A DNA stretch of 64,000 bases, taken from NCBI RefSeq assembly GCF_048403405.1, contig NZ_CP183131.1, one strand, 5' to 3'. A model generated the notes under the pieces. That model was not told where the DNA came from and ran no database searches. It was given only the letters and a program-made list of their open reading frames with translations. Positions 1,846 to 41,492 of the stretch are shown here, one piece after another; position 1 is the first letter of the stretch; each line of letters opens with the position of its first letter. The stretch is from Escherichia coli (lineage in GTDB: Bacteria; Pseudomonadota; Gammaproteobacteria; Enterobacterales; Enterobacteriaceae). Both the position numbers and the translations under genes were made by a program.

Positions 1846-1886
1846 AAAAGTGGGCGCTTAGCGCCCGCTTTTCTTCAGGAGTAATC

Positions 1887-2882: not shown

Positions 2883-3415
2883 TGAAAAACTTAGCAACCT
2901 GGCTTCTGGCCGCAGCATTTACGACAGCCGCCCTGCCCGCCTTTGCGGTGGAACCATCCGTTCAGGTTGGCTACTCGCCTGAAGGAAGCGCCCGCGTTCT
3001 CGTCCTGAGCGCCATTGACTCCGCAAAAACCTCGATACGGATGATGGCTTATTCTTTTACCGCCCCGGATATTATGAAGGCACTGGTAGCAGCCAAAAAA
3101 CGGGGAGTTGATGTGAAAATCGTAATTGATGAAAGGGGCAATACGGGGCGCGCCAGCATTGCGGCCATGAACTACATAGCGAACAGCGGCATCCCTTTGC
3201 GTACTGACAGTGATTTCCCTATCCAGCATGACAAGGTGATCATCGTGGATAATGTGACCGTTGAAACTGGCAGCTTTAATTTCACCAAAGCGGCCGAAAC
3301 GAAAAACTCGGAGAATGCGGTGGTGATCTGGAACATGCCTAAGCTCGCTGAATCATTCCTCGAACACTGGCAAGACCGCTGGAATCGGGGGAGAGACTAC
3401 CGTTCCAGCTACTGA
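2882..3415 (+). CDS. nuc: Nuc, periplasmic phospholipase-D-family endonuclease (pKM101 Nuc-like)
   Basis: Signal peptide MKNLATWLLAAAFTTAALPAFA; HxK-type motif region (IQHDKVIIVD); matches pKM101 Nuc from memory; start taken at internal ATG 2882 rather than ORF-track 2861. Confidence 0.85.
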   Translation: MKNLATWLLAAAFTTAALPAFAVEPSVQVGYSPEGSARVLVLSAIDSAKTSIRMMAYSFTAPDIMKALVAAKKRGVDVKIVIDERGNTGRASIAAMNYIANSGIPLRTDSDFPIQHDKVIIVDNVTVETGSFNFTKAAETKNSENAVVIWNMPKLAESFLEHWQDRWNRGRDYRSSY

Positions 3416-3421
3416 ATACTG

Positions 3422-3445
3422 ACCGCCGAAAGGCGGTTTTTTTTG
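3422..3445 (+). terminator. Rho-independent terminator after nuc
   Basis: GC stem ccgccgaaaggcgg followed by a T8 run, immediately after the nuc stop. Confidence 0.6.
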
Positions 3446-3588
3446 TTCAAAGAAACTGATCTCAGTATCGCGCACGGGGCAGCTGGCCAACGTCGCCGGC
3501 ATCGCGCCGGCAAAAATCGAAAAACAGAAATATCAGCAAGATAGCTTAAACAGGTGTCGGGAAATTTCGTTGAGATATTTTGAAGGAA

Positions 3589-3894
3589 TCACAGTGTAAG
3601 CAGGCGGCCTATTTCAAAAAAGGCGGCTGTACGGTAGTCACTGACTCTCTCGCAGATCTTCCCGCTCATGTACCAGTAATACCCGTCAGTGCTGACAATA
3701 TCGAGCAAATACCGCATATCATAAACCGTATCGGGTATTACCTCACCCTCACCGGCCAGAACGCCGCTGGCAATAGAATGGTTCCCTCCTCGTACAAAGC
3801 CTATCCGCCAGGGCAACCACAAAGTAACGCGGTGGTTAATATCCTGTACCCACGGATTGCCCTTAGCGCTGCCTATATGGGGTCTGAGGTCCAA
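3589..3894 (-). CDS. Hypothetical protein (coding strand uncertain; an overlapping plus-strand ORF exists at 3580-3915)
   Basis: ORF only; no family recognised. Confidence 0.2.
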   Translation of the reverse strand: MDLRPHIGSAKGNPWVQDINHRVTLWLPWRIGFVRGGNHSIASGVLAGEGEVIPDTVYDMRYLLDIVSTDGYYWYMSGKICERVSDYRTAAFFEIGRLLTL

Positions 3895-4142
3895 CCATGC
3901 GAAAAACCACGTTAAGAAAGCAACCTTCTGAAAAGGCGACGTTTATCAGTTTTTTTTCCGGCCATAAAGGGGGCGGAAATTATTCCCTGCACGGGTATTC
4001 GCAAGGATTTCGGTAGTGCTCTGGCTCTGCCCCCCATAACCTGGCGGACAGAGCATGATTGGGAAAGCGGTACCCTCACGGCAGAAACGATTGACGCAGG
4101 CTATATTTCTATTATTCTGGAAATATAGATAAAGGAGGTATT

Positions 4143-4323
4143 ATGGATTTAAACACTGCTGCAAACGCACTTCGAGAACTGGGCCACCCGACACGTCTCA
4201 GCATATACCGGGAGCTGGTCAGGGCGGGTCATGAAGGCCTGCCGGTTGGCGAACTGCAGAAGCACCTTGAGATTCCTGCCTCCACGCTCAGCCATCATCT
4301 TTCAGCGCTGATATCCGCTGGAC
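4143..4323 (+). pseudogene. ArsR-family HTH regulator, 3'-truncated by IS26
   Basis: N-terminal winged-helix motif (HPTRLSIYRELV…LPVGEL…STLSHHLSAL); ORF runs into the IS26 left IR at 4324. Confidence 0.7.
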
Positions 4324-5143
4324 GGCACTGTTGCAAATAGTCGGTGGTGATAAACTTATCATCCCCTTTTGCTGATGGAGCTGCACATGAACCCATTCAA
4401 AGGCCGGCATTTTCAGCGTGACATCATTCTGTGGGCCGTACGCTGGTACTGCAAATACGGCATCAGTTACCGTGAGCTGCAGGAGATGCTGGCTGAACGC
4501 GGAGTGAATGTCGATCACTCCACGATTTACCGCTGGGTTCAGCGTTATGCGCCTGAAATGGAAAAACGGCTGCGCTGGTACTGGCGTAACCCTTCCGATC
4601 TTTGCCCGTGGCACATGGATGAAACCTACGTGAAGGTCAATGGCCGCTGGGCGTATCTGTACCGGGCCGTCGACAGCCGGGGCCGCACTGTCGATTTTTA
4701 TCTCTCCTCCCGTCGTAACAGCAAAGCTGCATACCGGTTTCTGGGTAAAATCCTCAACAACGTGAAGAAGTGGCAGATCCCGCGATTCATCAACACGGAT
4801 AAAGCGCCCGCCTATGGTCGCGCGCTTGCTCTGCTCAAACGCGAAGGCCGGTGCCCGTCTGACGTTGAACACCGACAGATTAAGTACCGGAACAACGTGA
4901 TTGAATGCGATCATGGCAAACTGAAACGGATAATCGGCGCCACGCTGGGATTTAAATCCATGAAGACGGCTTACGCCACCATCAAAGGTATTGAGGTGAT
5001 GCGTGCACTACGCAAAGGCCAGGCCTCAGCATTTTATTATGGTGATCCCCTGGGCGAAATGCGCCTGGTAAGCAGAGTTTTTGAAATGTAAGGCCTTTGA
5101 ATAAGACAAAAGGCTGCCTCATCGCTAACTTTGCAACAGTGCC
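4324..5143 (+). mobile_element. IS26: IS26, complete 820 bp (tnp26 4387-5091)
   Basis: 14-bp terminal IRs ggcactgttgcaaa / tttgcaacagtgcc; 234-aa Tnp26 ([18 protein letters not shown]…); different 8-bp flanks, so no TSD. Confidence 0.97.
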
Positions 5144-5377
5144 GTCAAACGCCTCATTGAGCACCGGCAGTAATCCCTCACCTTCATGGGTCAGCACCAG
5201 CCCGCGCGAGACGCGGGTAAACAGCACACAGCCGAGTTGTTCTTCCAGCGCCCTGACCTGCTGGCTGACGGCGGCATGGGTGACATTCAGCTCAATCGCC
5301 GCGCGGGTAAAACTGAGATGACGGGCGGCGGCCTCAAAGGCGCGCAGCGGGTTAAGGGGGAGATAACGTCTGACCAT
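5144..5377 (-). pseudogene. ampR: ampR (LysR-type regulator) 5' remnant, truncated by IS26
   Basis: LysR HTH N-terminus (MVRRYLPLNPLRAFEAAARHLSFTRAA…) fused into IS26 sequence after about 78 codons; downstream of qnrA1 as in ISCR1-qnrA1 modules. Confidence 0.8.
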
Positions 5378-5562
5378 AATCCACCTGTAAGTTTTTCTTT
5401 AGGGCAGTTGAGTCTTCATAATGCCTCCTTTGAAGGGAAGGTATAACGTCGGCTGCGGCAGCAGAGAAACGGCATTCCGGCGGTAATACTCTGCTATAGC
5501 AGAATCTGCCTTGTTGTAGCGCGGAACTCAAGTGATATTTGCCTCTTGTGTTTGCATTCGAG

Positions 5563-6219
5563 CTAATCCGGCAGCACTATTACTCCCAAGGGTTCCAGCA
5601 GTTGCTCCTGTTGCCAGGCACAGATCTTGACTCCTTCGAGGTTGACCCGTCTGGGGTCGAGCCCATCCAGATCGGCAAAGGTCAGGTCACAGCCCCGCAG
5701 ATTGACCTGTTGCCAACAGTCGCGGGAGAAGGTGCCGCGGCTGAGATCTGAGCCCATCAAGGAAGCGCCGCTGAGATTGGCATTGCTCCAGTTGTTTTCA
5801 AACAGCTCGCATTTTTCCAGGCATTGGCCACTCAAGTTGGTATAGGCCAGGTTGCAACCTGAGATATAAGCCGAGCAGAAGTACATCTTATGGCTGACTT
5901 GATTGTAGAAGCGGGCCCGGGAAAAGTTGGCGCCCTTGAGATCGCACTCCCTGAACTCTATGCCAAAGCAGTTGGCACCGCTGAAGTTGGCCAAAGACAG
6001 ACGGCAGGCCTTGAAACTGGCATCGCGCAGATCGGCATAGCTGAAGTGACACCCTTCAACGGCGCCGCTTTCAATGAAACTGCAATCCTCGAAACTGGCA
6101 TCCTGCAGCTGACAGTGGCTGAAGTCACACTGATAAAAGCGGCAGCGGCGAAAACGGCTGTCACTCAAATCCTGGCGTGAGAAATCCTCTTGCTGAAAAA
6201 CTTTATCAATAATATCCAT
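5563..6219 (-). CDS. qnrA1: Quinolone-resistance pentapeptide-repeat protein QnrA1
   Basis: 218 aa, MDIIDKVFQQEDFSRQDLSDSRFRRCRFYQCDFSHCQLQDASF…, pentapeptide repeats throughout; adjacent to ISCR1. Confidence 0.88.
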   Translation of the reverse strand: MDIIDKVFQQEDFSRQDLSDSRFRRCRFYQCDFSHCQLQDASFEDCSFIESGAVEGCHFSYADLRDASFKACRLSLANFSGANCFGIEFRECDLKGANFSRARFYNQVSHKMYFCSAYISGCNLAYTNLSGQCLEKCELFENNWSNANLSGASLMGSDLSRGTFSRDCWQQVNLRGCDLTFADLDGLDPRRVNLEGVKICAWQQEQLLEPLGVIVLPD

Positions 6220-6270
6220 ACGGCTTCCTTTAATCAGGGAGGGTGCTAACGGGTATAGGAAGTATAAACC

Positions 6271-8424
6271 ACCTTTTTGCTCCTCATCCGAAGTATCTTA
6301 CCTGAAATTCCCTCACTCGTTTACCGCTCAAGCCCCAATTTTAACTGCCGGTCCAGCCTAAACCGCTCTAATAAGGTTCGATTTGGCGGTAAAATCTCTA
6401 GCCTGATAGCTCGAGAGATACAAACTGCCCCACCGCCCCGTTTAAAAGTTGGCAGTGTTGAGCAGTGTTGGATTTGGGGTCGTCAGTCAAAGAGACGACT
6501 CTGTGATGGATCGAACAGGCTGGGAGTCAGTGGCGGCGCTCGTTCTGGTGGCAGCTCACGCTGCTTGGCGGCATTCGCCTTGGCTGTTTTCTGTTTCAGA
6601 TGCTTGAGAATCTGCTCAATGACCTTCGGATCTTCGATGCTGGCAATCACTTTGACGTGACCGCCGCAGTGTTCGCAGACTTCAATATCAATATTGAAGA
6701 CTCGCTTGAGGCGTTGCATCCAGGTCATGGCGCGGTGGCGCTCTGCAGGACTCTTGTCACGCCAGTTAGTATCGAGACCTTCCGATTTGTCGGGCTTCTT
6801 GCCCCGCTTGGCGGGTGTTACTTGAACTCGGTGTTTGCTGTTCGGTGCAAAGACGCCGTGGAAGCGTGTGAGGTTGACTCGCGGCTTAGGTACCAACGCA
6901 GCGAGTTTGGCGATGAAGTCCAGCGGCTCGAAGATCACATGGGTGGTGCCATTGCGGTACGGAGTTTTGAGCTCGTAACGCACCTGCCCATTGGCGGTTA
7001 ATGCCAGACGTTTTTCTGAAACCGCTGGCCGACTAATGTAGCGACACAAGCGCTCAAGCTTATCCCGCTGATGCGCTTCGGCCATCACACCGGCGTGTAG
7101 CGAGAAACCAGCATGGTTGGCTACTCGACTGCTTGAGTCGGCTTTATCCTCACGCCCTGGCAAGGTTTGCAGGGTGAAGACTTTGCGCCCTTGCTGGGGG
7201 CCGACGGCAATGCGATACGTAACCGAAGCACCATGTAATTGAGTCAGCGTATCGTCTTCGCCCTCTTCCAGTGTCAACCACGTATTCTCGGCATCACGCT
7301 CCAAAATCCCACGCTTTTCCATGCAGCGAGCGATGCGATGGCTGAGGGTGTGAGCGAGCGTATTCAGCTCATCGTAAGTGGGTGCCTTGACACGATGGAA
7401 GCGTTGCTTGCCATAGTCATCTTCGGCATAGACACCATCGAGAAACAGCATGTGGTAGTGGACATTGAGATTTAGCGCGGAGCCAAAGCGTTGGATAAGA
7501 GTCACTGAGCCAGTTTGTGCAGAGGCTTTGGTGTAACCGGCTTTTTTGATCAGATGAGTTGAGAGTGTACGATAGACGATACTCAAGACCTGGCCCATCA
7601 GCTGGGGATGGCGAGCCAGCAAAAAGCGTAGCTGGAAAGGAAAGCTGAGCACCCACTGGCGAATGGGCTCCTTGGGGAAGACTTCGTCTATCAGCAGCGC
7701 CGCACTCTCGGCCATCCGGCGGGCACCGCAGCTAGGGCAAAAGCCGCGTCGTTTACAGCTGAAGGCGACCAGACGCTCGTGATGACAATCCTCGCAGCGA
7801 ACCCGCATGAAACCATACTCCAGACGGCCACATTGGAGGAGGTCGTTGAATTCTTGTTGGATGTAGCGAGGCAGGTGTTGACCTTGGGCTTCGAGTGAGG
7901 CTTTGAAGGCTGGGTAGTGCTGCTCAACCAGCTGGTAGAGCAGCGTCTGGTCGGGTTGGTGGCGTTCGTAACCGTTTGTTTGAGTGGGCGATTGACTCGC
8001 CGTGGCGTTCCTTGCCAGCGACATGGGTATCCTCCGCTGATACTGTGGTTATGTACAGTATCAGCGGCTTGCGTTCAGACGTCCAGTCTGGCCCTAGACA
8101 TCGCTAAATGCTTAACCCGCAATAGCCCTCACGAGTTGTTATCAGCCACTACCGGTTGAGCGAGAAGGTTTTGGGTTCAGGGTGCTATTGCTCCACCAAT
8201 CACAATACTGAAGCCCCAACTGTTATCAGTTGGGGCTTTTTCTTGTCTGTTTGCGGCGGTTGCGTTTTATCGGTAGTCGTCGAGCTCTGCACCATCCCAC
8301 ATAAGAGCTTAACGGTGCGATCTTCAACGCCATCACACAAAACTTTCTTTTTCACGCACAGTCAACTTATTGGATGTTTTATTAACAACCCAAAAGGAGA
8401 TATTTAGCGGGCGGCCGGAAGGTG
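6271..8424 (-). mobile_element. ISCR1: ISCR1 (boundaries approximate)
   Basis: Contains orf513; located directly after sul1 and before qnrA1 as in complex class 1 integrons; ends not verified at nucleotide level. Confidence 0.65.
6483..8024 (-). CDS. orf513: ISCR1 rolling-circle transposase (Orf513)
   Basis: 513 aa, MSLARNATASQSPTQTNGYERHQPDQTLLYQLVEQHY…; IS91-like HUH transposase features. Confidence 0.9.
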   Translation of the reverse strand: MSLARNATASQSPTQTNGYERHQPDQTLLYQLVEQHYPAFKASLEAQGQHLPRYIQQEFNDLLQCGRLEYGFMRVRCEDCHHERLVAFSCKRRGFCPSCGARRMAESAALLIDEVFPKEPIRQWVLSFPFQLRFLLARHPQLMGQVLSIVYRTLSTHLIKKAGYTKASAQTGSVTLIQRFGSALNLNVHYHMLFLDGVYAEDDYGKQRFHRVKAPTYDELNTLAHTLSHRIARCMEKRGILERDAENTWLTLEEGEDDTLTQLHGASVTYRIAVGPQQGRKVFTLQTLPGREDKADSSSRVANHAGFSLHAGVMAEAHQRDKLERLCRYISRPAVSEKRLALTANGQVRYELKTPYRNGTTHVIFEPLDFIAKLAALVPKPRVNLTRFHGVFAPNSKHRVQVTPAKRGKKPDKSEGLDTNWRDKSPAERHRAMTWMQRLKRVFNIDIEVCEHCGGHVKVIASIEDPKVIEQILKHLKQKTAKANAAKQRELPPERAPPLTPSLFDPSQSRLFD

Positions 8425-8428
8425 AATG

Positions 8429-9268
8429 CTAGGCATGATCTAACCCTCGGTCTCTGGCGTCGCGACTGCGAAATTTCGCGAGGGTTTCCGAGAAGGTGAT
8501 TGCGCTTCGCAGATCTCCAGGCGCGTGGGTGCGGACGTAGTCAGCGCCATTGCCGATCGCGTGAAGTTCCGCCGCAAGGCTCGCTGGACCCAGATCCTTT
8601 ACAGGAAGGCCAACGGTGGCGCCCAAGAAGGATTTCCGCGACACCGAGACCAATAGCGGAAGCCCCAACGCCGACTTCAGCTTTTGAAGGTTCGACAGCA
8701 CGTGCAGCGATGTTTCCGGTGCGGGGCTCAAGAAAAATCCCATCCCCGGATCGAGGATGAGCCGGTCGGCAGCGACCCCGCTCCGTCGCAAGGCGGAAAC
8801 CCGCGCCTCGAAGAACCGCACAATCTCGTCGAGCGCGTCTTCGGGTCGAAGGTGACCGGTGCGGGTGGCGATGCCATCCCGCTGCGCTGAGTGCATAACC
8901 ACCAGCCTGCAGTCCGCCTCAGCAATATCGGGATAGAGCGCAGGGTCAGGAAATCCTTGGATATCGTTCAGGTAGCCCACGCCGCGCTTGAGCGCATAGC
9001 GCTGGGTTTCCGGTTGGAAGCTGTCGATTGAAACACGGTGCATCTGATCGGACAGGGCGTCTAAGAGCGGCGCAATACGTCTGATCTCATCGGCCGGCGA
9101 TACAGGCCTCGCGTCCGGATGGCTGGCGGCCGGTCCGACATCCACGACGTCTGATCCGACTCGCAGCATTTCGATCGCCGCGGTGACAGCGCCGGCGGGG
9201 TCTAGCCGCCGGCTCTCATCGAAGAAGGAGTCCTCGGTGAGATTCAGAATGCCGAACACCGTCACCAT
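8429..9268 (-). CDS. sul1: Sulfonamide-resistant dihydropteroate synthase Sul1
   Basis: 279 aa from [21 protein letters not shown]…; overlaps the qacEdelta1 stop (atggtgac); ORF-track N-terminal extension rejected. Confidence 0.92.
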
Positions 9269-9609
9269 GGCGTCGGCCTCCGCAGCGACTTCCACGATGG
9301 GGATCGGGCGAGCAAAAAGGCAGCAATTATGAGCCCCATACCTACAAAGCCCCACGCATCAAGCTTTTGCCCATGAAGCAACCAGGCAATGGCTGTAATT
9401 ATGACGACGCCGAGTCCCGACCAGACTGCATAAGCAACACCGACAGGGATGGATTTCAGAACCAGAGAAAGAAAATAAAATGCGATGCCATAACCGATTA
9501 TGACAACGGCGGAAGGGGCAAGCTTAGTAAAGCCCTCGCTAGATTTTAATGCGGATGTTGCGATTACTTCGCCAACTATTGCGATAACAAGAAAAAGCCA
9601 GCCTTTCAT
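9262..9609 (-). CDS. qacEdelta1: QacEdelta1, truncated SMR efflux protein of the class 1 integron 3'-CS
   Basis: 115 aa, [27 protein letters not shown]…. Confidence 0.92.
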
Positions 9610-9772: not shown

Positions 9773-10564
9773 TCATTTACCAACTGACTTGATGATCTCG
9801 CCTTTCACAAAGCGAATAAATTCTTCCAAGTGATCTGCGCGTGAGGCCAAGTGATCTTCTTTTTGTCCCAGATAAGCTTGCTTAGCTTCAAGTAAGACGG
9901 GCTGATACTGGGCAGGTAGGCGTTTTATTGCCCAGTCGGCAGCGACATCCTTCGGCGCGATTTTGCCGGTTATTGCGCTGTACCAAATGCGGGACAACGT
10001 AAGCACTACATTTCGCTCATCGCCGGCCCAGTCGGGCTGCGAGTTCCATAGCTTCAAGGTTTCCCTCAGCGCCTCGAATAGATCCTGTTCAGGAACCGGG
10101 TCAAAGAATTCCTCCGCTGCCGGACCTACCAAGGCAACGCTATGTTCTCTTGCTTTTGTAAGCAGGATAGCTAGATCAATGTCGATCATGGCTGGCTCGA
10201 AGATACCCGCAAGAATGTCATTGCGCTGCCATTCTCCAAATTGCAGCTCGCGCTTAGCCGGATAACGCCACGGGATGATGTCGTCATGCACGACAAGGGT
10301 GACTTCTATAGCGCGGAGCGTCTCGCTCTCGCCAGGGAAAGCCGAAGCCTCCATAAGATCATTGAGCAATGCTCGCCGCGTCGTTTCATCAAGCTTTACG
10401 GCCACAGTAACCAACAAATCAATATCGCTGTATGGCTTCAGGCCGCCATCCACTGCGGAGCCGTACAAATGCACGGCCAGCAACGTTGATTCCAGATGGC
10501 GCTCAATGACGCTTAGCACCTCTGATAGTTGGTTCGAAATTTCGATGGTCACCGCTTCCCTCAT
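9773..10564 (-). CDS. aadA2: Aminoglycoside (3'')(9) adenylyltransferase AadA2
   Basis: 263 aa, MREAVTIEISNQLSEVLSVIERHLESTLLAVHLYGSAVDGGLKPYSDIDLL…. Confidence 0.88.
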   Translation of the reverse strand: MREAVTIEISNQLSEVLSVIERHLESTLLAVHLYGSAVDGGLKPYSDIDLLVTVAVKLDETTRRALLNDLMEASAFPGESETLRAIEVTLVVHDDIIPWRYPAKRELQFGEWQRNDILAGIFEPAMIDIDLAILLTKAREHSVALVGPAAEEFFDPVPEQDLFEALRETLKLWNSQPDWAGDERNVVLTLSRIWYSAITGKIAPKDVAADWAIKRLPAQYQPVLLEAKQAYLGQKEDHLASRADHLEEFIRFVKGEIIKSVGK

Positions 10565-10569
10565 GATGT

Positions 10570-10860
10570 CTAACGGGCGAGGTAAGCCGACCGCAGAATG
10601 CGGGTCGGCTTGACCGAAATGTTAGAACCAGAAGCCAAAACGGATAACTTGAATTTGGCGACGGGCGCTAACCGTGAAAAAACGCTGCGCCACCGAGGCG
10701 GCACAGCACTGCAAAAACGATAGCTGCTTGCGCTTGCTACGCAAGGGCTAGAGGCCAAAAAGACTGAAAACCTGCGCAGCCCATGCAGGCGAAGCCCGGA
10801 AAAAAGGCAAAACAGGCACTGAATAACGCCTGAAAAGCTAAATGCCGTTTGAATAAACAT
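10570..10860 (-). CDS. gcuF: Gene cassette of unknown function (gcuF / orfF)
   Basis: 96-aa ORF between dfrA12 and aadA2; the dfrA12-gcuF-aadA2 array is well established; attC-like repeat at 10567-10627. Confidence 0.65.
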   Translation of the reverse strand: MFIQTAFSFSGVIQCLFCLFSGLRLHGLRRFSVFLASSPCVASASSYRFCSAVPPRWRSVFSRLAPVAKFKLSVLASGSNISVKPTRILRSAYLAR

Positions 10861-10971
10861 GAGCTAAATAAAGCTGGGTTTCAGTGGTGCTAACGTTGGA
10901 CGTAACGAGAGCCGGAGCGCAGCGGAGGGAACCAAAATGCGCAGCATTTTGGCGTCCCGTTGACGGAATGG

Positions 10972-11469
10972 TTAGCCGTTTCGACGCGCATAAACGGAGT
11001 GGGTGTACGGAATTACAGCTTGAATGGTTTCGGTTGAGACAAGCTCGAATTCTGTTTCGTTGAGCATTGGGAAGAAGGCGTCACCCTCGAAGGTTTGATG
11101 TACCTCAGATAGAAACACGCCGTGGGCGTGAGGTAGTGCCAGAGTGTATATCTCAGCTCCGCCCGCGACGTAGAGTTCATTGCCGAGTTCGGATGCCAAA
11201 GCGATAGCGTGCGACAGCGTTGAAACAACTACGCAGCCAGTGGCGCGGTAGTTAGCTTGGCGTGAGATTACCAATGTGTGACGGTTCGGTAGAGGCTTGC
11301 CGATAGACTCAAAGGTCTTTCGCCCCATGACAACGACTTTTCCCTCAGTGAGTCTGCGAAAAATCTTCTGCTCACCCGGAATTTTCCAGGGGATATTAGG
11401 ACCATTGCCAATAACCCGATTGGCTCCCATCGCAGCAACGAGATAAATGCGTACTGATTCCGAGTTCAT
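10972..11469 (-). CDS. dfrA12: Trimethoprim-resistant dihydrofolate reductase DfrA12
   Basis: 165 aa, MNSESVRIYLVAAMGANRVIGNGPNIPWKIPGEQKIFRRLTEGKVVVMGRKTFESIG…. Confidence 0.87.
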   Translation of the reverse strand: MNSESVRIYLVAAMGANRVIGNGPNIPWKIPGEQKIFRRLTEGKVVVMGRKTFESIGKPLPNRHTLVISRQANYRATGCVVVSTLSHAIALASELGNELYVAGGAEIYTLALPHAHGVFLSEVHQTFEGDAFFPMLNETEFELVSTETIQAVIPYTHSVYARRNG

Positions 11470-11540
11470 ATGGCTAACTTTGTTTTAGGGCGACTGCCCT
11501 GCTGCGTAACATCGTTGCTGCTCCATAACATCAAACATCG
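11470..11540 (-). other. attI1 integration site
   Basis: Canonical attI1 sequence (reverse complement …gccctaaaacaaagttagcc) abutting the first cassette. Confidence 0.7.
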
Positions 11541-34086: not shown

Positions 34087-34608
34087 CTACCTCCGGCCCC
34101 TAAACCACTCTGGATGATTGGATACATCCATGCTCTTAACCTGTGATGAGAAGACCAGTAGCTCTTGGGTCGTCAGGACGGTCTCAGGAGCCCGAGCGAT
34201 GAAAGGTCTCAGCAATTCAGAACCCGCATAGATATTGATGACCATATGCAATCGCTCTGTTGCTCCAGAAACTCTCCGCCAGCTCCGGTAGGTTTCTGTT
34301 GATTTGGCATAGCCAACCAAGGCAGGAGCCAGCGTGTCGGACTCCTTCGTATTCAACTTCCCTTTTGCTGCCTTCGATACGAACTCAGCGATCACCGAAG
34401 CCAGCATGTCGGAGGTAAGGTGAAGCGGCAGCTTTATCGTGTCGAAGTCAGCCTGCTTGATGGTGAACAGGCGGATGTGATCGTTGCGGTAGTCACGCAC
34501 ATAGATGACATGACTCTCAAATGGGTTGGAGTGGTTAAAGGCATCCATACCCCAGCCTGCGGCCTCAAGATGTGCGTTTGATACTGACTTGTCGTAATCA
34601 AATTCCAC
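34087..34608 (-). CDS. Hypothetical protein
   Basis: 173-aa ORF. Confidence 0.4.
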   Translation of the reverse strand: MEFDYDKSVSNAHLEAAGWGMDAFNHSNPFESHVIYVRDYRNDHIRLFTIKQADFDTIKLPLHLTSDMLASVIAEFVSKAAKGKLNTKESDTLAPALVGYAKSTETYRSWRRVSGATERLHMVINIYAGSELLRPFIARAPETVLTTQELLVFSSQVKSMDVSNHPEWFRGRR

Positions 34609-34612
34609 GCTA

Positions 34613-35221
34613 TTACTCTCCGTCTTGTCGTTCAGGAACTTTCACATGTGAAAGTTTTCCGTCGGTCATGATGTCCAGGACGGCTTTGCCCAGTCTCATC
34701 CCTTTATGGTTTTGAACCGGGTCTCCCTTGTAGAAAAGTCCTGGCTCGTTATCGGGATGGAATACCCCGTGAGGAATGTTGTCGTGATCGCCCAGCCACA
34801 TGCGTAGCCTCAGATCCACCAGCCACCCATCATCCAGGACAACCCAGAAATGCGGTGTCACGATGTCCTTGGTCTGTTCGTTTCGCACAAAGCCATACAT
34901 GCAGTCATGAGGTACACCCGCTTCATTGAGTAGGTGGCTTACTGCCCATGTCATACCGTCACATTCCATCTGGCAGTCATCCAAGGTCATAAGGACGGCT
35001 TCCAGTTCCCGGTGCCACTCCGTCATTTGCTTGGCCGCAGGTTTTACCACCAGCTCGTTTTTGTTTTCTGCCAAGATGATGTCTTCCTCGTCAATATTGC
35101 ATTCGTCTATCGCTTCCGAACGGATGGATACCGCTTCATCCCAGTCATCGCTCGATCCGAAAATGCTCCAACCCTCAAGACCGTAATTCACCCATACGAT
35201 GAACCGCTTTATCGTTTTCAT
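34613..35221 (-). CDS. Hypothetical protein
   Basis: 202-aa ORF. Confidence 0.4.
   Translation of the reverse strand: MKTIKRFIVWVNYGLEGWSIFGSSDDWDEAVSIRSEAIDECNIDEEDIILAENKNELVVKPAAKQMTEWHRELEAVLMTLDDCQMECDGMTWAVSHLLNEAGVPHDCMYGFVRNEQTKDIVTPHFWVVLDDGWLVDLRLRMWLGDHDNIPHGVFHPDNEPGLFYKGDPVQNHKGMRLGKAVLDIMTDGKLSHVKVPERQDGE
34637..34656. promoter_or_regulatory. Palindromic operator-like site (copy 6 of 8)
   Basis: aactttcacatgtgaaagtt, 29 bp upstream of the 34608 start. Confidence 0.5.
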
Positions 35222-35416
35222 GTGCGGCCCCCTTTAACCGTGCAACGTTCCCACATACTCACCCCTTCAAACCGTAACCCCACCAAAAAGCCACTTCTTG
35301 ATGATTTCCAATCAGCAGCGGCAGGTTGCCCCTGAACTAACCTCACCGAAAAACCACCTTTAGATTGCTTTCTGGTGCTTATCAAGTTCTCCTGAGTGAT
35401 TAGTCGTTCTGAAAAC

Positions 35417-35444
35417 TTTACTTTTCACAGTATCATTTTATAAT
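35417..35444 (+). promoter_or_regulatory. Putative sigma70 promoter TTTACT-N16-TATAAT upstream of the PAPS-reductase-like gene
   Basis: Contains the recurrent tatcattttataatactgtaaat motif. Confidence 0.4.
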
Positions 35445-35489
35445 ACTGTAAATCATAAAAACAACCCAGTAAAGAAAAAAGAGCGACTT

Positions 35490-36605
35490 ATGTTGAGACG
35501 AGAAAACCAAGGAGATTTGTTCGATGACCAGGTGGTGTTGCCATCACTGGAGTCGGTTCTTACCGGCATATCTTCCAGTCAGCGTTGTGACGATAGAACA
35601 ACGTACTTCTCCGCTCCGGATGTGGACCTGAGTTTGTACGATCACATCATTGTTTGCCTGTCTGGAGGCAAAGACTCGATTGCTGCGTACTTGCGGCTGG
35701 TGGACATGGGTGTTGATAAGTCAAAGGTGGAGTTCTGGCACCATGATGTTGATGGTCAGGAAGGCAGTTCGTTGATGGATTGGGCCTTCATGCGTGATTA
35801 CTGTCGTCAGCTCGGGGAAGAACTGGGTATCCCAATGTACTTCTCGTGGCTTGAGGGCGGCTTTGAGGGCAAAATGCTCAAAGACAATGCCTATAGCCAC
35901 CCCCATCGTGTAGAGACGCCTGAGGGGCTTCTGGTGCTGCCTAGAGACCATAAGCGCTCTAAGCCTGGTACGCGCCTTCGTTTCCCTCAGCAATCGCCAT
36001 CACTCCAAACAAGGTGGTGCTCATCAGCCTTGAAGATCGATGTTGGCCGCAGAGCTCTTAATAACCAGGAGCGCTTCAAGGGGAAGAAGATCCTTTTCAT
36101 CACTGGTGAGCGCCGGGAGGAAAGTGCAAACAGATCCAAGTACAACCAGCTTGAGGCTCATGCCTGTGACAGAAGATATGGGAAGACTGCACGGTTAGTT
36201 GATGCCTGGAGGCCCGTTCTTCATTGGACTGAGGAGGAGGTATGGGAAGTAATCGAGCGTCACCGCATCCTGGCCCCAGTCCCTTATCGCCTTGGCTGGA
36301 GCCGGTCGTCGTGTATGACCTGCATCTACAACTCACAGCGTATCTGGTCCACGATCCGTCACTACTGGCCTGAACGAGCTGGGAAAATTGCTCAGTATGA
36401 ACAAACCTTTGGTGTGACGGTATCAAGAAAAAAAATCGACGTAATAGATTTAGGTTCTGCTGTTGCGCCGATACAGATTAGTGATGTTGAGGCATTGGAG
36501 CAGGTATCCAGAGAAGATTACACGCTCCCGATTTTTGTGCCGGAGGGGCAGAAGTGGGTTCTCCCTGGTGGCGCATTTGGCCGAGAGGCCTGTGGTTCTG
36601 ATTGA
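35490..36605 (+). CDS. PAPS-reductase-family (PP-loop ATP pyrophosphatase-like) protein
   Basis: 371 aa; PP-loop motif CLSGGKDS; C-terminal Cys cluster. Confidence 0.7.
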   Translation: MLRRENQGDLFDDQVVLPSLESVLTGISSSQRCDDRTTYFSAPDVDLSLYDHIIVCLSGGKDSIAAYLRLVDMGVDKSKVEFWHHDVDGQEGSSLMDWAFMRDYCRQLGEELGIPMYFSWLEGGFEGKMLKDNAYSHPHRVETPEGLLVLPRDHKRSKPGTRLRFPQQSPSLQTRWCSSALKIDVGRRALNNQERFKGKKILFITGERREESANRSKYNQLEAHACDRRYGKTARLVDAWRPVLHWTEEEVWEVIERHRILAPVPYRLGWSRSSCMTCIYNSQRIWSTIRHYWPERAGKIAQYEQTFGVTVSRKKIDVIDLGSAVAPIQISDVEALEQVSREDYTLPIFVPEGQKWVLPGGAFGREACGSD

Positions 36606-37057
36606 TTTGTGCAGAGGTGGCAATGTTGGATTTTGTTTTTTTGGTGTTTTTGGGGTTGGGCATATCTACGGTGCTGGTGCGTCGGTCTTCCCGTAAGGGG
36701 ATGGATCTTGAGCTGACATGGCTCCAGTCGTTGAAGGTCGTGCTGGTTCGTGGAGCTGTTGCATTGGGCCTGGGTTTTGGCATTGGCAGGCTTGTATTGA
36801 TGGGGATGCAGTATGGTTTCCTGAGTGAGTCTGTCCTGAGGGAACATGCACTTGTCTCCGTAGCGGTGGTTCTGATCTGTGGGCTTGGTTCGTTCGTTGC
36901 GTTTCAGTGGATCATCGGGAGGATCTCTGGAAGATCGATCAGCGTCGTTTCTGTGATCAAAGCTGTGATGTACGAGTCTGGTTACTTTGTGCTGTCGATG
37001 CTTATCTTGTTGGTGATACTCGTCCTGTTCGGCCTTGCATACGAGACTTTTTTCTAA
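36602..37057 (+). CDS. Integral membrane protein
   Basis: 151 aa, 4 hydrophobic helices; stop/start-coupled to the PAPS-reductase-like gene. Confidence 0.45.
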   Translation: MICAEVAMLDFVFLVFLGLGISTVLVRRSSRKGMDLELTWLQSLKVVLVRGAVALGLGFGIGRLVLMGMQYGFLSESVLREHALVSVAVVLICGLGSFVAFQWIIGRISGRSISVVSVIKAVMYESGYFVLSMLILLVILVLFGLAYETFF

Positions 37058-37214
37058 AAAAACAGTGTTGATTATTTTTTGTTCAGTGATCAAAAGGATA
37101 AATATAAAGATCTTTAGATCTTTGTATAAAGGATTAAAAACGGTTAAAGACAGGTTAGGCGTTCTAAATCACCACTCAACACATTGATATTACTGGTGTT
37201 TTCATATTTATTCC

Positions 37215-37952
37215 GTGCAACAAACCCATAGGTTGCCGTGCAGCGTTCCCATAGGTTGCCGTGCAACGTCCCCACATACCCTTGGATCTTATCCACTGTT
37301 ATCCACACGGAACCCCTCTTTTTTCCACAAAATCCTTACAAAACAGAGCTTTCGTGCAGCGTTCCCACATATCAGATCTGGTGTTCGTGCAGTATTCCCA
37401 CATGTCTAAGGTCATACGTGCAGTCGCCCCATATACAATTTTCTGAACGTGCAACGTACCCACATGTCAATTTTGGTCGTTTTTTGCACCGTGCAGCGTA
37501 CCCACATATGATCGTGCAGCGTTCCCATATACCAAAACCCCGTTTATGCACAGGAAATGTGGATAACTTTTGGCCTCTTTTTGTGTGCGCGTGATCACTT
37601 TATGGACTATTAGAGTCATTTTGACTGCTTTTTTAGGTTTGTCCTGATCTGTCAATCTTTGTTCTGCTTCGTCAATCGTGCAGAGTTCCCATATATCGAG
37701 AGGTTCAGGACCTGCTTTCGTGCAACGTACCCACATATCAAATCTCATAACGTGCAGGTCCCCCACATCCTCACCCTTTAACTATCAATACCTTACGGGA
37801 ACCACTCTACGGGAACCACTGGAGCAGCATGGCACTTATCCTTCGTCGTGGCTTACGCTTGCACGATACTGAGACTCAGCTTGCGACTACCGTGCAGCGA
37901 TCCCATATATAGAGCCCCAGCCCACGCTGCATCTGGGGTCACGTTCGCTCTA
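37215..37952. repeat. Replication-origin iterons: about 14 direct copies of a ~19-bp repeat CGTGCA(G/A)CGTNCCCA(C/T)AT(A/G)
   Basis: Copies start at about 37215, 37237, 37259, 37352, 37385, 37417, 37447, 37490, 37512, 37667, 37699, 37729, 37870, 37934; one more at 40332. Confidence 0.75.
37289..37307 (+). promoter_or_regulatory. Tandem DnaA boxes (TTATCCACT, TTATCCACA) within the iteron region
   Basis: Perfect DnaA-box consensus at 37299-37307; AT-rich stretch with GATC sites at 37060-37200 nearby. Confidence 0.5.
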
Positions 37953-38093
37953 TCCGTGCAGCTCCCCCATATGCGGAGGCATTCCGTTTCCGGTCCTGCC
38001 TGGTGGGCGTACCTTGTGCGCTTTCTTCTGGCATAAAAAAAGGCGCTGACGCGCCTATCTTTCTTTTCCCTGGGGGGTGGGAGATTCTGGTGG

Positions 38094-39194
38094 CTATCTC
38101 CCCTTACGTTGGGGTTCATCAATGATGTCGTGGTCGATCATGCCGTGCTTGATGGCCCGTAGCTCTGTCTGCTGCTTACGCTTGTTGGACGCCATCACCT
38201 GCTTCACGAAGTTCTCATGAGGCCTTATGACGTACCGCACGTCGATGACTCTGCGGCCATCCTTGATCTGGTTCGCGTCGTAGTCGCTTATGACCTCTTG
38301 TTTGATGAGGGCCTCCAGAGCGAGCTTCATGGCTCTGACGTTCTCCGGCATCCGTGGGCTCAATTCACGAGGGCTCTGGGTCAGGAAGCTGATAAGCGAT
38401 GGCGTGTACGGCGAATCTGGTGATGCTTGAGTCCAGTAGTGGCTCATTCGCTTGTAGATGTACCGTGCAAGAGGGGAGCGGATTTGCATTCCGATTTTGT
38501 AGTTGTACTGACGAAACGACAGATTCATGATCGATTCGTTTACCAGCGGGTTGAACTGCACATAGCACCTGGCGTTCCCGCCTTTCTTGCGAAACTCACC
38601 TCTGGTGGTCAGTCCCACCATCGGGAAGAAGCTGGAGCTGATGAAGGCTTCACCGTCATCACTGATACATTCGAGTGTTGCGCCACGACAAACCTGGATT
38701 GCTTCCTTGATTTCGTTCAGGTTGTACCCGTGACCCATCTTCGAGAGCTCTTTCTGGAGTTCGTACAGAGTGAACATGACTCCAGCCTTGCCCTCGATGA
38801 TATGGCCTTTCCCGTTCACTGCGAGCTTGCGTAGAGCATCCTCAAGGATTTCCTCTCGCTGTCCCGCGTAGATCAGCACGGTTCTTCCGTCATCCTTCTC
38901 GATGATGGCTGGCTTCACCTTCACCGTGAAATGCTGGCCTCTGATGGTGCATTGTCGTGTCACTACAGCGTTGGATAAATCTTCATGCTCACGCTTTTGG
39001 TCCCAAATGTACTTCGGCAGCGCATCGTAGATCTCGATGGTGTTGGAGTAGTCGTCTTTCTTGGCCGGAGATTCAATGATCTCAAACAGGCTCATTTGCG
39101 GTGAGTCTTTGATTACGTCGAGTTTCTCCAGGTCTTTGTCTTTGGTTCTCTTGCTCATGATTGTTCCGTCGATACTTTCTAGCTGGTGGTCCAT
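38094..39194 (-). CDS. repA: Iteron-type plasmid replication initiator RepA
   Basis: 366-aa ORF immediately upstream of the iteron array; true start may be the internal Met at 39158. Confidence 0.7.
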   Translation of the reverse strand: MDHQLESIDGTIMSKRTKDKDLEKLDVIKDSPQMSLFEIIESPAKKDDYSNTIEIYDALPKYIWDQKREHEDLSNAVVTRQCTIRGQHFTVKVKPAIIEKDDGRTVLIYAGQREEILEDALRKLAVNGKGHIIEGKAGVMFTLYELQKELSKMGHGYNLNEIKEAIQVCRGATLECISDDGEAFISSSFFPMVGLTTRGEFRKKGGNARCYVQFNPLVNESIMNLSFRQYNYKIGMQIRSPLARYIYKRMSHYWTQASPDSPYTPSLISFLTQSPRELSPRMPENVRAMKLALEALIKQEVISDYDANQIKDGRRVIDVRYVIRPHENFVKQVMASNKRKQQTELRAIKHGMIDHDIIDEPQRKGR

Positions 39195-39466
39195 GCCGCC
39201 AGCATTGTCAATGCTCCCGCTGCTACCGTCGCTGAAAACACTAGCTGGTAGATGCGACGCTTAGCCCCCGCAGTGCCGCTCATAAAACGCAGGGCTGCCG
39301 CTTCATATCGGAAATGAGCGAACTCACCCCGAAGGGTGCTATCTGTCCCCTGTGGCGATTGTGGGCGCTTTGACAGGGCAGGGCGAGGATGGCTGGCGAC
39401 TTTCTTGATCATCGCTTCACATTTCCCCAGTTTCGCCAATTCAGTGGCCGCTACAGATGCTGTCAT
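39179..39466 (-). CDS. Hypothetical small protein
   Basis: 95-aa ORF overlapping the repA 5' end. Confidence 0.3.
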   Translation of the reverse strand: MTASVAATELAKLGKCEAMIKKVASHPRPALSKRPQSPQGTDSTLRGEFAHFRYEAAALRFMSGTAGAKRRIYQLVFSATVAAGALTMLAAWTTS

Positions 39467-39470
39467 GTTG

Positions 39471-40037
39471 TCACACCTCGTCGCTATGTGTCTTGTTTAG
39501 CTGGCGCTCGTACTCGTTTAGCGCCCGGCGAATTTTTGCTAAGGCAGTGGCGCGTTGTCTTAACACGGCATACCTGGTTTCAACTTGCTGGATCAACTCT
39601 TGTGCCCAGACAGGCTCTTTCTTGAAGTGCGACATGCTGTAGGCATGACCGCGACCCTTCTTGATATGTGTCGATAGAACCCTTTTCTTTTGTCCGGGAA
39701 CTTGTTCGACAAATCTGTTGCGATACCACTCTGCAACGAGTGATACGCCTAGAATGCGAACCCGTGTACCGACACGCCCTTGTTCGTCCTCTGACGCTTC
39801 TTCACGCGCTGATTTGTGCGCGTTCCAGTACATGTCCGCTTCCTGCTGCGCCTCGACAGCAAGAACCGCTAAGGCGTGATCCAGTTTGCTCCGTACCTCT
39901 GCAACAAACTCTCGTCCCTCTGCCTCTAGCAGATCCTCTGTTATCTCGGATCGTTCTTCTTCGAGCTTCGGATCTAGCAGATCTAGCCATCGCTCTGTTG
40001 GTAGACTCACCTCAATACCCTCCCAATTCCTATCCAA
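39471..40037 (-). CDS. Hypothetical protein
   Basis: 188-aa ORF, charged/coiled. Confidence 0.4.
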   Translation of the reverse strand: MDRNWEGIEVSLPTERWLDLLDPKLEEERSEITEDLLEAEGREFVAEVRSKLDHALAVLAVEAQQEADMYWNAHKSAREEASEDEQGRVGTRVRILGVSLVAEWYRNRFVEQVPGQKKRVLSTHIKKGRGHAYSMSHFKKEPVWAQELIQQVETRYAVLRQRATALAKIRRALNEYERQLNKTHSDEV

Positions 40038-40260
40038 TTCCTATCCACATAACTATCTATCTGGAATTTAAAGCTGATTATTCCAATACTGGAATCTAGT
40101 TCTGTCACTAGGCTAACCCATCTTTGGAATTTGTCAAATTTCCCTCTATCTATCTGGAATCTTGATGCTCTTATTCTTTCACAGCCTCTTTACATATGAA
40201 TCTATATTTAAAGATTCCAGATATATTGGATATGGCATCAAAGATTCCAAATGCCTCTTT
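40020..40260. repeat. Centromere-like repeat region (parC-like) upstream of parM
   Basis: Multiple copies of (t)ctggaat / attccag in both orientations. Confidence 0.45.
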
Positions 40261-40508
40261 ACCACCGTCTCTCGATGCTGGAGGGCAAGCGGTTCTCGAT
40301 GCGAGGGTAAGGTCTGTTTATCTGAGCCTATCCGTGCAGCGTTCCCATAGGTTCCCTTACTCAACGATCAAAAAGCCACCGAAAAGCAACCTATATGCCC
40401 CTTTTGGGCAATTACACAGGCCATCTGTCCCCGCTTTTAGCCTTATTCTCTATCCAACACGCGGCAAGCAATCGAAAAGCAATCTAAAAGCAATCTTTGG
40501 AGGATTTC

Positions 40509-41492
40509 ATGAGTCAATTTGTTCTGGGTTTGGATATTGGTTACTCCAACCTGAAAATGGCAATGGGGTATAAAGGTGAGGAAGCTCGCACAGTCGTCAT
40601 GCCGGTGGGGGCAGGTCCATTGGAACTGATGCCACAACAGTTAACTGGCGGTGCAGGGACCTGCATTCAGGTTGTGATTGATGGAGAGAAATGGGTTGCA
40701 GGCGTCGAGCCTGACCGATTGCAAGGATGGGAGCGTGAGCTTCACGGCGACTATCCTTCGACCAATCCATACAAGGCTCTTTTCTACGCTGCACTCCTGA
40801 TGTCCGAGCAGAAGGAGATCGATGTGCTGGTGACTGGCCTGCCTGTTAGTCAGTACATGGACGTAGAGCGCAGAGAGGCGTTGAAATCTCGGCTTGAGGG
40901 TGAACACCAGATCACGCCAAAACGATCGGTAGCGGTTAAGTCTGTCGTGGTTGTACCTCAACCTGCCGGTGCTTACATGGATGTTGTAAGTTCAACCAAA
41001 GATGAAGACCTCCTGGAGATTATCCAGGGAGGAAAAACCGTTGTAATTGACCCTGGGTTCTTTTCTGTAGACTGGGTAGCTCTTGAAGAGGGAGAGGTCC
41101 GCTATCACTCATCTGGCACCAGCCTCAAGGCGATGTCGGTGTTGCTACAGGAAACGGACCGGCTAATTCAGGAAGACCACGGCGGTGCCCCTGGCATCGA
41201 AAAGATCGAGAAAGCTATTCGTGCCGGTAAGGCCGAAATCTTCCTCTACGGTGAAAAGGTATCGATCAAAGACTACTTCAAGAAAGCCTCAACCAAAGTC
41301 GCTCAAAACGCCTTGATCCCTATGCGGAAGTCAATGCGTGAGGACGGGATGGATGCTGACGTAGTTCTGCTGGCTGGCGGCGGTGCCGAGGCTTACCAAG
41401 ATGCGGCCAAGGAGCTTTTCCCTAAGAGCAGGATCGTACTGCCCAACGAATCCGTGGCATCCAATGCCAGGGGCTTCTGGTTCTGCGGCTGA
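40509..41492 (+). CDS. parM: Actin-like plasmid segregation ATPase (ParM/StbA family)
   Basis: N-terminal phosphate-1 motif LGLDIGYSNLK; GGAGG near 41190; start at ATG 40509 with ggagg RBS. Confidence 0.75.
   Translation: MSQFVLGLDIGYSNLKMAMGYKGEEARTVVMPVGAGPLELMPQQLTGGAGTCIQVVIDGEKWVAGVEPDRLQGWERELHGDYPSTNPYKALFYAALLMSEQKEIDVLVTGLPVSQYMDVERREALKSRLEGEHQITPKRSVAVKSVVVVPQPAGAYMDVVSSTKDEDLLEIIQGGKTVVIDPGFFSVDWVALEEGEVRYHSSGTSLKAMSVLLQETDRLIQEDHGGAPGIEKIEKAIRAGKAEIFLYGEKVSIKDYFKKASTKVAQNALIPMRKSMREDGMDADVVLLAGGGAEAYQDAAKELFPKSRIVLPNESVASNARGFWFCG

Follow-up and report, generated by a model that had tools for sequence, protein, structure and literature searches.

The repA-oriV replication module of an IncC plasmid and its outlying iterons

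Does the region between positions 37060 and 39194 of this Escherichia coli DNA contain a plasmid replication origin, and to which replicon type does it belong? The stretch under analysis (64,000 nucleotides, hereafter the window) had been the subject of a preliminary description, in which this region was regarded as a classical iteron origin and the replicon type was left unnamed. The database comparison of repA and iterons that was recommended there provided the type, which is IncC. A search of PLSDB with the 2135 bp of 37060-39194 gave 100% identity over the full length, with 745 records matching at 99% or more; the RepA protein was at least 99% identical in 979 records. The matching record examined for its type is listed as IncC, MOBH and MPF_F. 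For an IncC call based on repA, alignment coverage must reach 98% and nucleotide identity 80% against a reference IncA/C repA (PMC5587640); 100% identity over the full length was obtained here. IncA and IncC replicons are described as having 11 to 14 iterons of 19 bp, which in IncC lie downstream of repA, together with a DnaA box (PMC7433901); 14 copies and five boxes were counted in the present segment. Together with the initiator fold predicted for RepA, the IncC repA-oriV identity and the published iteron description bear out the claim of a classical iteron origin. The segment is almost certainly the vegetative replication module (repA plus oriV) of a conjugative resistance plasmid of the IncC group (formerly IncA/C2).

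The IncC origin as such is already known from the literature. Replication of these plasmids is mediated by repA/oriV, independently of AcaCD (PMC4542580), and that article credits this to work on the RA1 replicon (Llanes et al., 1994, 1996). Minimal replicons have been reported, of which pMSZ1248 contains the rep region with oriV plus parAB053 (PMC10954446). Autonomous replication of the segment as a mini-replicon, proposed earlier as a check, is thus a matter of published record (PMC10954446; PMC4542580). A second replicon of the pSN1216-29 type, as in pSRC119-A/C, was considered as well and rejected: its iteron CCGTCYWTTACCCAC gave a single match with two mismatches in the window, which is within chance.

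[quoted passage not shown] This order is correct when read in the direction of repA itself, i.e. on the minus strand, and exactly 14 iterons were counted, all of them on the plus strand. Their consensus, CGTGCAGCGTTCCCACATA, is the reverse complement of the published IncC consensus yaTRTGGGNNcgcTGCACG (PMC7433901). A degenerate iteron pattern with up to 3 mismatches detected 13 copies in the window, where shuffled sequence would yield 0.06, and PWM scores of the copies ranged from 20 to 30 bits, the shuffle maximum being 16.7. Iterons 1-3 (37214..37278, starting at 37214, 37237 and 37260) have a spacing of 23 bp and adjoin the AT-rich end. They are followed by iterons 4-9 (37353..37531, starting at 37353, 37386, 37417, 37448, 37490 and 37513), iterons 10-12 (37677..37769, starting at 37677, 37719 and 37751) and, nearest to repA, iterons 13 and 14 (37891-37909 and 37955-37973). 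Successive starts are separated by 23, 23, 93, 33, 31, 31, 42, 23, 164, 42, 32, 140 and 64 bp. Between iterons 12 and 13, a 14-bp sequence (TACGGGAACCACT) is present twice in tandem (37794..37820, plus strand); it is nearly identical in pRA1, with one base differing in the second copy. The GGGAAC core of this tandem repeat resembles an inverted iteron core.

The tandem DnaA boxes noted earlier were found at 37289 (TTATCCACT) and 37299 (TTATCCACA), 10 bp apart, and a third box on the plus strand, TTTTCCACA at 37321, completes this group (37289..37329). Two further boxes form a convergent pair (37544..37566), with TTATGCACA on the plus strand at 37544 and TTATCCACA on the minus strand at 37558. 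This pair is absent from the preliminary description. Five boxes in 400 bp, two perfect and three with one mismatch, compare with 0.07 expected. In the IncA plasmid pRA1, oriV is collinear at 91% identity and every iteron position is kept, iterons 13 and 14 included; both boxes of the convergent pair are kept too, as are those at 37299 and 37321, and not the one at 37289.

The distribution of iterons and boxes suggests a refinement that is not exclusive of a single origin. Iterons 1-9 with the DnaA boxes might constitute the origin proper, while iterons 10-14 might form a locus for copy-number control and incompatibility, acting by RepA titration and handcuffing and dispensable for initiation, comparable to incA of P1 or incC of F. 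The clusters are indeed separated by gaps of 93, 164 and 140 bp, DnaA boxes occur only within or beside iterons 1-9, and 14 iterons exceed the need, a Xenorhabdus relative having 8. The retention of all 14 positions between IncA and IncC points the other way; it says little on this matter, however, because the overall identity is 91%. Such a division of the array is given a somewhat less than even chance.

Beyond iteron 1, the AT-rich GATC-containing stretch of the preliminary description was recovered at 37050-37150, with 76-78% AT, the repeat AGATCTTT AGATCTTT and GATC sites at 37088, 37109 and 37117. GATC density reaches its maximum for the whole window in 36871-37120 (9 sites in 250 bp, the mean being 4.5 per kb). 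The core of the stretch, GGATAAATATAAAGATCTTTAGATCTT, is invariant between IncC and IncA, and the sequence just before the core varies. By analogy with known iteron origins, 37050-37150 is most likely the DNA-unwinding element. The position of this element is nevertheless ambiguous because a second AT-richer spacer, free of iterons, sits inside the array (37567..37676). This spacer reaches 66% AT, carries GATC at 37593 and 37646, directly abuts a perfect DnaA box and has iterons on both sides, and is therefore an alternative candidate for the opening site. The terminal block is clearly richer in AT (76-78% against 58-66%) and has both the GATC maximum and the AGATCTTT repeat, which we take to be similar to the 13-mers of oriC; moreover, its core did not change between IncA and IncC, while several substitutions were found in the spacer. 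Opening at the internal spacer is accordingly considered unlikely, and the terminal block is retained as the probable unwinding site.

The gene repA (vcrx003 or R55_3 equivalent) occupies 38094..39194 on the minus strand and codes for 366 amino acids from the first ATG, in agreement with the RefSeq annotation; the IncC-typed record lists its product as a replication initiator. An alternative start at 39158 would give a protein of 354 residues beginning with MSKRTK. The AF2 model of RepA had a pLDDT of 88.4 and a pTM of 0.86, with low pLDDT in residues 1-16, and most homologues are 340-356 residues long, so that the start codon is uncertain between 39194 and 39158. Just upstream, between mobI and repA, a conserved ORF of 95 residues (vcrx002 equivalent; 39179..39466, minus strand) extends by 16 nt into repA as annotated. 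It is conserved at the protein level down to relatives with 57-72% RepA identity, and may share a transcript with repA or be coupled to it in translation.

Comparison of the RepA model with the PDB by Foldseek gave 44 matches at E ≤1e-3, and all 44 were RctB domains 2-3, RepE54, a Rep-iteron/DUE complex or pi. The best of them were RctB domains 2-3 (E 3.5e-9) and RepE54 (about 1e-6), with a sequence identity of only 10-18% for the RctB and RepE matches. As modelled, RepA has the tandem winged-helix (WH1-WH2) fold found in RepE, pi and RctB, which are iteron-binding initiators. Sequence searches returned no match in Pfam at E up to 10 (the threshold of Rep_3, PF01051, was not reached), in NCBIfam at E up to 1, or among PDB sequences by phmmer and by a 40-sequence profile. 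The family placement of RepA is therefore made at the fold level, on a predicted structure, and formal sequence membership in Rep_3 (PF01051) was not obtained; one Buchnera homologue has a precomputed PF01051 match. Homology of RepA to a protein of non-replicative function had been named as an observation that would speak against an origin, and the predicted fold matched replication initiators only. That the repeats are instead a centromere or operator array for another protein, with 'RepA' a transcriptional regulator or partition adaptor, is hardly credible: the absence of a Pfam or NCBIfam match speaks for it, but the fold, the identity of the segment to a replicon treated in the literature as a replication module and the separate parAB/053 and ParM-type partition systems of the plasmid all argue against it, and the published minimal replicons effectively refute it.

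Control elements of repA were searched as well. A terminator-like GC hairpin followed by a T run was detected 38 nt after the repA stop codon (38041..38056, minus strand), identical in pRA1, and was the only convincing terminator in the scan. In the promoter consensus scan, promoter-like sites were no commoner than in shuffled sequence. No iteron or half-iteron was found upstream of repA in 38100-40300; the autorepression operator usual in RepE- or pPS10-type replicons, i.e. inverted iterons or half-iterons in the rep promoter, is therefore not evident here. As nothing was returned when 34500-41000 was compared with Rfam (E up to 1), there was no sign of a known antisense-RNA control element.

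More distant replicons were informative about the iterons. Each relative with 57-84% RepA identity has an iteron variant of its own, terminating in GCTGCACG or GCTGCATCG; the closest copies are 22-23 bp apart, and the array also contains DnaA boxes. The iterons thus co-vary with RepA across the family, a pattern of sequence change that is consistent with specific binding. In the Xenorhabdus relative, the RepA/C-type replicon is located inside a P1-like phage-plasmid, and another relative (L007) has inverted iterons directly upstream of its repA.

From this anatomy, a mechanism can be proposed for the IncC origin. RepA would bind as a monomer, through its tandem winged-helix domains, to the 19-bp iterons that follow repA, and host DnaA would occupy the interspersed DnaA boxes. 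RepA and DnaA together would open the adjacent AT-rich, GATC-containing stretch at 37050-37150, where the host DnaB helicase and the replisome would load for theta replication. The many iterons would titrate RepA and pair plasmid copies ('handcuffing'); titration and handcuffing would in turn result in a low copy number and make the array the incompatibility determinant. The dense GATC cluster would probably lead to Dam methylation and SeqA sequestration of the origin after firing. In this scheme, the behaviour of RepA as monomer or dimer, the handcuffing, the precise site of unwinding and the role of SeqA are what we infer by analogy with F, P1, R6K, RK2 and pPS10. IncA and IncC plasmids are reported to be compatible (PMC9709138, PMC6232296) despite nearly identical iterons, so that a simple model of incompatibility by iteron titration falls short.

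One extra iteron upstream of parM (40332) had been pointed out in the preliminary description, with handcuffing or cross-regulation as its possible role. This copy is real, at 40333-40351, but the number had to be revised, as three outlying copies were found. The first, CGTGCAGCGTTCCCATAGG (plus strand), lies in the intergenic region of mobI and parM (vcrx152), 2.4 kb from the array on the far side of repA. The mapped oriT is left behind by about 130 bp at this point; the palindrome TGCCCCTTTTGGGCA (40396-40410) follows after about 45 bp, and a candidate AcaCD box of the vcrx152 (parM) promoter is likewise about 45 bp away. The copy is kept in pRA1 and degenerate in a diverged Edwardsiella plasmid. 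The second, CGTGCAACGTTCCCACATA (35239..35257, plus strand), is a perfect match to the degenerate search pattern, located 2.0 kb beyond the AT-rich end and 18 bp upstream of the start codon of a 202-aa gene (34613..35221, minus strand). It is identical in pRA1, and in the Edwardsiella plasmid it lies within a 26-nt island of identity with diverged flanks, from which selection on at least this site is argued. The third, CGTGCAGTCTTCCCATATC (36175..36193), is an inverted, iteron-like copy on the minus strand with 3 mismatches and 22.5 bits, inside a PAPS-reductase-like gene, and its equivalent is present in pRA1; all three copies are thus conserved in IncA. No outlying iteron was found in the DNA examined from a Pseudoalteromonas plasmid and from three other relatives (L006, L007 and L009), which suggests that the parM-proximal copy is confined to the IncA/IncC lineage. 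The IncC literature covered here makes no mention of the three outlying iterons.

That these three copies are functional RepA-binding sites, acting through looping or handcuffing to the origin array or through direct transcriptional control by RepA, is a tentative and rather doubtful proposal. In the case of looping or handcuffing, they could tune initiation, by analogy with R6K, in which pi connects the gamma origin with the alpha and beta origins. In the case of transcriptional control, the targets of RepA could be the 202-aa gene (35239 copy) and the AcaCD-dependent promoter of vcrx152, which is ParM/SrpM-like (40333 copy). If true, such a control by RepA would link partition and transfer functions to the state of replication.

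In Enterobacterales, Vibrio and Aeromonas, IncC plasmids are major vehicles of resistance genes, including those for carbapenemases and ESBLs. Host range, copy number and incompatibility all depend on their replicon, at which replicon typing and plasmid-curing strategies are directed. For the window, the practical outcome is a firm label, an IncC backbone with repA and oriV at 37050-39194; the finding as stated brings no new biology. The IncC type, the three outlying iterons and the ambiguous start codon of RepA are added here, and two modest questions are raised, namely the role of the conserved outlying iterons and the compatibility of IncA and IncC with almost identical iterons.

Among known systems, the IncC/IncA (RepA/C) replicon of R55, pVCR94 and pRA1 shows no substantive difference from the present one, iteron consensus and copy number being as published; the published summary mentions 'a single DnaA box' (PMC7433901), whereas five were counted here. 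The replicon of P1 (oriR - repA - incA) is similar in its iteron-binding RepA, its large iteron array downstream of repA, its DnaA boxes and its GATC-containing, AT-rich origin. In P1, the origin has GATC-rich, AT-rich repeats and the low copy number is controlled by iteron handcuffing, as is proposed here for IncC; its origin iterons are located upstream of repA and overlap the repA promoter, resulting in autorepression. In contrast, all 14 IncC iterons are downstream of repA and none upstream, and a sequence relationship with P1 is not detectable. R6K resembles IncC in that pi structurally matches RepA and in that isolated iterons are found a few kb from a central array. In R6K, initiator-mediated looping joins the gamma origin to the distant alpha and beta origins, which have only one iteron or half of one; the outlying IncC iterons are unrelated to these in spacing, sequence and gene context. 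Finally, RepE at oriS of mini-F and RctB at ori2 of Vibrio cholerae share with RepA, as modelled, the tandem winged-helix architecture that reads iterons, RepA with its 366 residues being intermediate in length between RepE (251 aa) and RctB (658 aa).

The interval 37060-39194 contains a single long open reading frame, repA (38094..39194, minus strand, 366 aa), followed in its own direction by 1 kb of repeat-dense non-coding DNA. Scanning with a position-weight matrix built from the iteron copies themselves placed 14 units of 19 bp (consensus CGTGCAGCGTTCCCACATA), all on the plus strand, with starts at 37214, 37237, 37260, 37353, 37386, 37417, 37448, 37490, 37513, 37677, 37719, 37751, 37891 and 37955, giving start-to-start distances of 23, 23, 93, 33, 31, 31, 42, 23, 164, 42, 32, 140 and 64 bp. 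These repeats are far beyond chance, since the degenerate pattern with at most three mismatches was matched 13 times in the window against 0.06 expected, and the copies scored 20-30 bits against a top score of 16.7 in shuffled sequence. Five DnaA boxes with at most one mismatch to TTATCCACA lie within the array at 37289, 37299, 37321, 37544 (+) and 37558 (-), compared with 0.07 expected per 400 bp (Poisson P ~1e-8). The far end of the array adjoins an AT-rich block (37050-37150, 76-78% AT) carrying AGATCTTTAGATCTTT and three GATC sites, and the surrounding 250 bp contain 9 GATC sites, a higher density than anywhere else in the 64-kb window, where the mean is 4.5 per kb. On the opposite side, a terminator-like GC hairpin with a T run (38041-38056) is located 3' of the repA stop codon. 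[quoted passage not shown]

Further elements were noticed in this region. Five GATC sites are clustered within 46 bp (36910-36958) at the 3' end of a gene for a 151-aa membrane-like protein, adjoining oriV at its AT-rich end; combined with the three GATC sites of the AT block they form the whole-window maximum, and a SeqA/Dam-controlled zone extending into coding sequence is possible. A tandem 14-bp repeat (two copies of TACGGGAACCACT, 37794-37820, plus strand) between iterons 12 and 13 is nearly identical in the IncA plasmid pRA1, and the GGGAAC at its core looks like an inverted iteron core. In the RefSeq annotation, a hypothetical protein of 54 aa (WP_014342194.1, 37144-37308, minus strand) spans iterons 1-3 and the DnaA boxes, and several longer ORFs also cross the array; the repeats most probably give rise to all of these as artefacts.

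The 2135-bp segment was found at full length and 100% identity in PLSDB, where 745 records match at 99% or more, with Klebsiella, Salmonella, Escherichia, Citrobacter, Providencia and Vibrio as main hosts. The replicon type, which the preliminary description had left to a BLAST search, is IncC: the matching record fetched for typing, pSHE-CTX-M, is IncC, MOBH and MPF_F. Its gene order is the familiar IncC backbone, with a PAPS-reductase-like gene, the 151-aa membrane-like protein, oriV, repA, a 95-aa ORF, mobI, oriT, a ParM/StbA-like gene, the H-NS-like acr2, acaC, acaD, a lytic transglycosylase gene and acr1. The remainder of the window agrees with a Klebsiella-type IncC resistance plasmid: its left end holds an IS26/class 1 integron/ISCR1-qnrA1 island, and traFHG lies to the right. 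According to a matching plasmid covering 83% of window 1-25000, the island (~1-9300) carries IS26, qnrA1, ISCR1, sul1, qacEdelta1, aadA2, dfrA12, intI1 and IS26, and is followed by IncC backbone genes including a VirB9/VirB10/VirB11-like cluster.

IncA and IncC replicons have been described as a DnaA box with 11 to 14 copies of 19-bp iterons, and the published IncC consensus, yaTRTGGGNNcgcTGCACG (PMC7433901), is the reverse complement of the unit found here. The gene repA corresponds to vcrx003 (PMC4207636). [quoted passage not shown] The object is therefore the known IncC repA-oriV replicon, already described in the literature.

RepA gave no match in Pfam even at E up to 10 and none in NCBIfam, and no PDB sequence was matched by the single sequence or by a 40-sequence profile. 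The RefSeq label 'RepB family' was not reproduced by current models. An AlphaFold2 model made from 40 diverse homologues was confident (mean pLDDT 88.4, pTM 0.86). All 44 Foldseek matches of this model in the PDB at E <=1e-3 were iteron-binding initiators, namely RctB domains 2-3 (E 3.5e-9), RepE54 of mini-F, a Rep-iteron/DUE complex and pi of R6K, at sequence identities of 10-18%. RepA is therefore, by its predicted fold, a tandem winged-helix initiator; no match pointed to a non-replicative function, and the fold, the PLSDB identity and the published iteron consensus support the earlier reading as a classical iteron origin. Where translation starts is uncertain. From the annotated ATG at 39194, repA shares 16 nt with the upstream ORF, and the model shows residues 1-16 as disordered; most homologues have 340-356 aa, a length that fits the second ATG at 39158.

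The origin of pRA1 is collinear with 91% identity and keeps all iteron positions. It also keeps the DnaA boxes at 37299, 37321, 37544 and 37558 but not the one at 37289, which leaves a single conserved member of the 'tandem' pair. The iterons of IncA and IncC are almost identical in sequence and position (window 37214-37973 versus 2173-2930 of the IncA sequence L004). Despite the reported compatibility of both groups (PMC9709138, PMC6232296), nothing that distinguishes the two replicons was evident from the DNA comparison.

By analogy with F, P1, R6K, RK2 and pPS10, the iterons would be occupied by RepA monomers and the boxes between the iteron clusters by DnaA, and the RepA-DnaA complex would melt the adjoining AT-rich block, allowing DnaB loading and the start of theta replication. 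Surplus iterons would titrate RepA and pair sister plasmids, holding copy number low, and once it has fired the origin may be sequestered through Dam/SeqA, as the GATC cluster suggests. Within this scheme, iterons 10-14 may be a control locus and not belong to the origin itself. Opening at the internal spacer (37567-37676) is less favoured, as the terminal block is more AT-rich, carries a AGATCTTT repeat, coincides with the GATC maximum and has a core, GGATAAATATAAAGATCTTTAGATCTT, that is invariant between IncC and pRA1; opening at the terminal block (37050-37150) is favoured.

Three iterons lie outside the array. The extra copy reported upstream of parM at 40332 is real and was placed at 40333-40351; those at 35239 and 36175 had not been listed. 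The copy at 35239-35257 (plus strand) matches the degenerate pattern perfectly and lies upstream of a 202-aa gene, 18 bp from its start codon, and the inverted copy at 36175-36193 (minus strand) is inside the PAPS-reductase-like gene. The oriT was published as R55 139-323, directly upstream of the mobI GTG (PMC5587640); our mapping of these coordinates places it at ~40017-40201, and the 40333 copy therefore lies ~130 bp beyond it. In agreement with that paper, an AT-rich oriT region (40040-40230) with 15-bp CTATCTATCTGGAAT repeats adjoins mobI. The 40333 copy is followed, ~45 bp further on, by a palindrome, TGCCCCTTTTGGGCA (40396-40410), which lies upstream of the ParM-like gene within the region of the AcaCD-dependent vcrx152 promoter. 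This palindrome, conserved in IncA and an Edwardsiella plasmid, may be the AcaCD box of P152.

All three outlying copies are present in pRA1. In the Edwardsiella plasmid the 35239 copy is a 26-nt island of identity between diverged flanks, the parM-proximal copy is decayed, and three inverted copies, 49 bp apart, lie beyond its own array; no outlying copies were found in the DNA examined of more distant relatives (the Pseudoalteromonas plasmid, L007 and L009 among them). The open-access papers searched do not mention the three outlying copies, the likeliest primary papers being outside that scope. Titration, looping to oriV and RepA-dependent transcriptional control are candidate roles. That these copies are functional RepA sites is considered rather unlikely. 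They are the only part of the locus with residual novelty.

Beyond IncA/IncC, the RepA family includes an Edwardsiella plasmid (92% amino acid identity), Xenorhabdus (84%), Pseudoalteromonas (57%), Pseudomonas aeruginosa plasmids of 390-520 kb (32%) and the Rep proteins of Buchnera plasmids. Each examined relative has its own iteron variant: TATRTGGGAACGTTGCACG in about 19 copies (Edwardsiella plasmid), TATGTAGGTATGCTGCACGG in 8 (Xenorhabdus P1-like phage-plasmid) and TAGAGGTTTGYTGCATCGGTT in at least 9 (Pseudoalteromonas plasmid), all downstream of repA, and GTTGTAGGTTGGCTGCACG in 10 copies upstream of it in the metagenomic plasmid L007. These variants share the GCTGCAC(G) end, and their closest spacing is 22-23 bp; the other half of the iteron varies with the protein, a pattern expected of a co-evolving protein-DNA recognition pair. 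DnaA boxes inside the array also occur in L007 and Pseudoalteromonas. The Xenorhabdus sp. PB30.3 contig (L009, GCA_020881345.1; repA 10001-11035, iterons 11061-11517) carries its RepA/C-type replicon among P1-like genes (RepL, DarA, ddrB-ParB, LydB, tail-fibre assembly), next to a PhdYeFM/ParE toxin-antitoxin pair; RepA/C-type replicons thus also occur outside MOBH conjugative plasmids.

The 95-aa ORF between mobI and repA (39179-39466, minus strand, equivalent to vcrx002) shares 16 nt with the annotated start of repA, and its protein sequence is conserved even in relatives whose RepA identity is as low as 57%. The N-terminus contains the invariant motif ATELAKLGKC and the C-terminus is hydrophobic; the ORF matched no family, and may belong to the same transcription unit as repA or be coupled to its expression. 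L007 (Logan SRR25400123, 6908-7422, 68% RepA identity) has the opposite arrangement to IncC: seven direct iterons, two perfect DnaA boxes and then three inverted iterons directly before the repA start, indicating that this lineage may use inverted iterons for autoregulation. An iteron search upstream of the IncC repA found none; therefore its autorepression, if any, must be of a different kind from that of RepE or pPS10.
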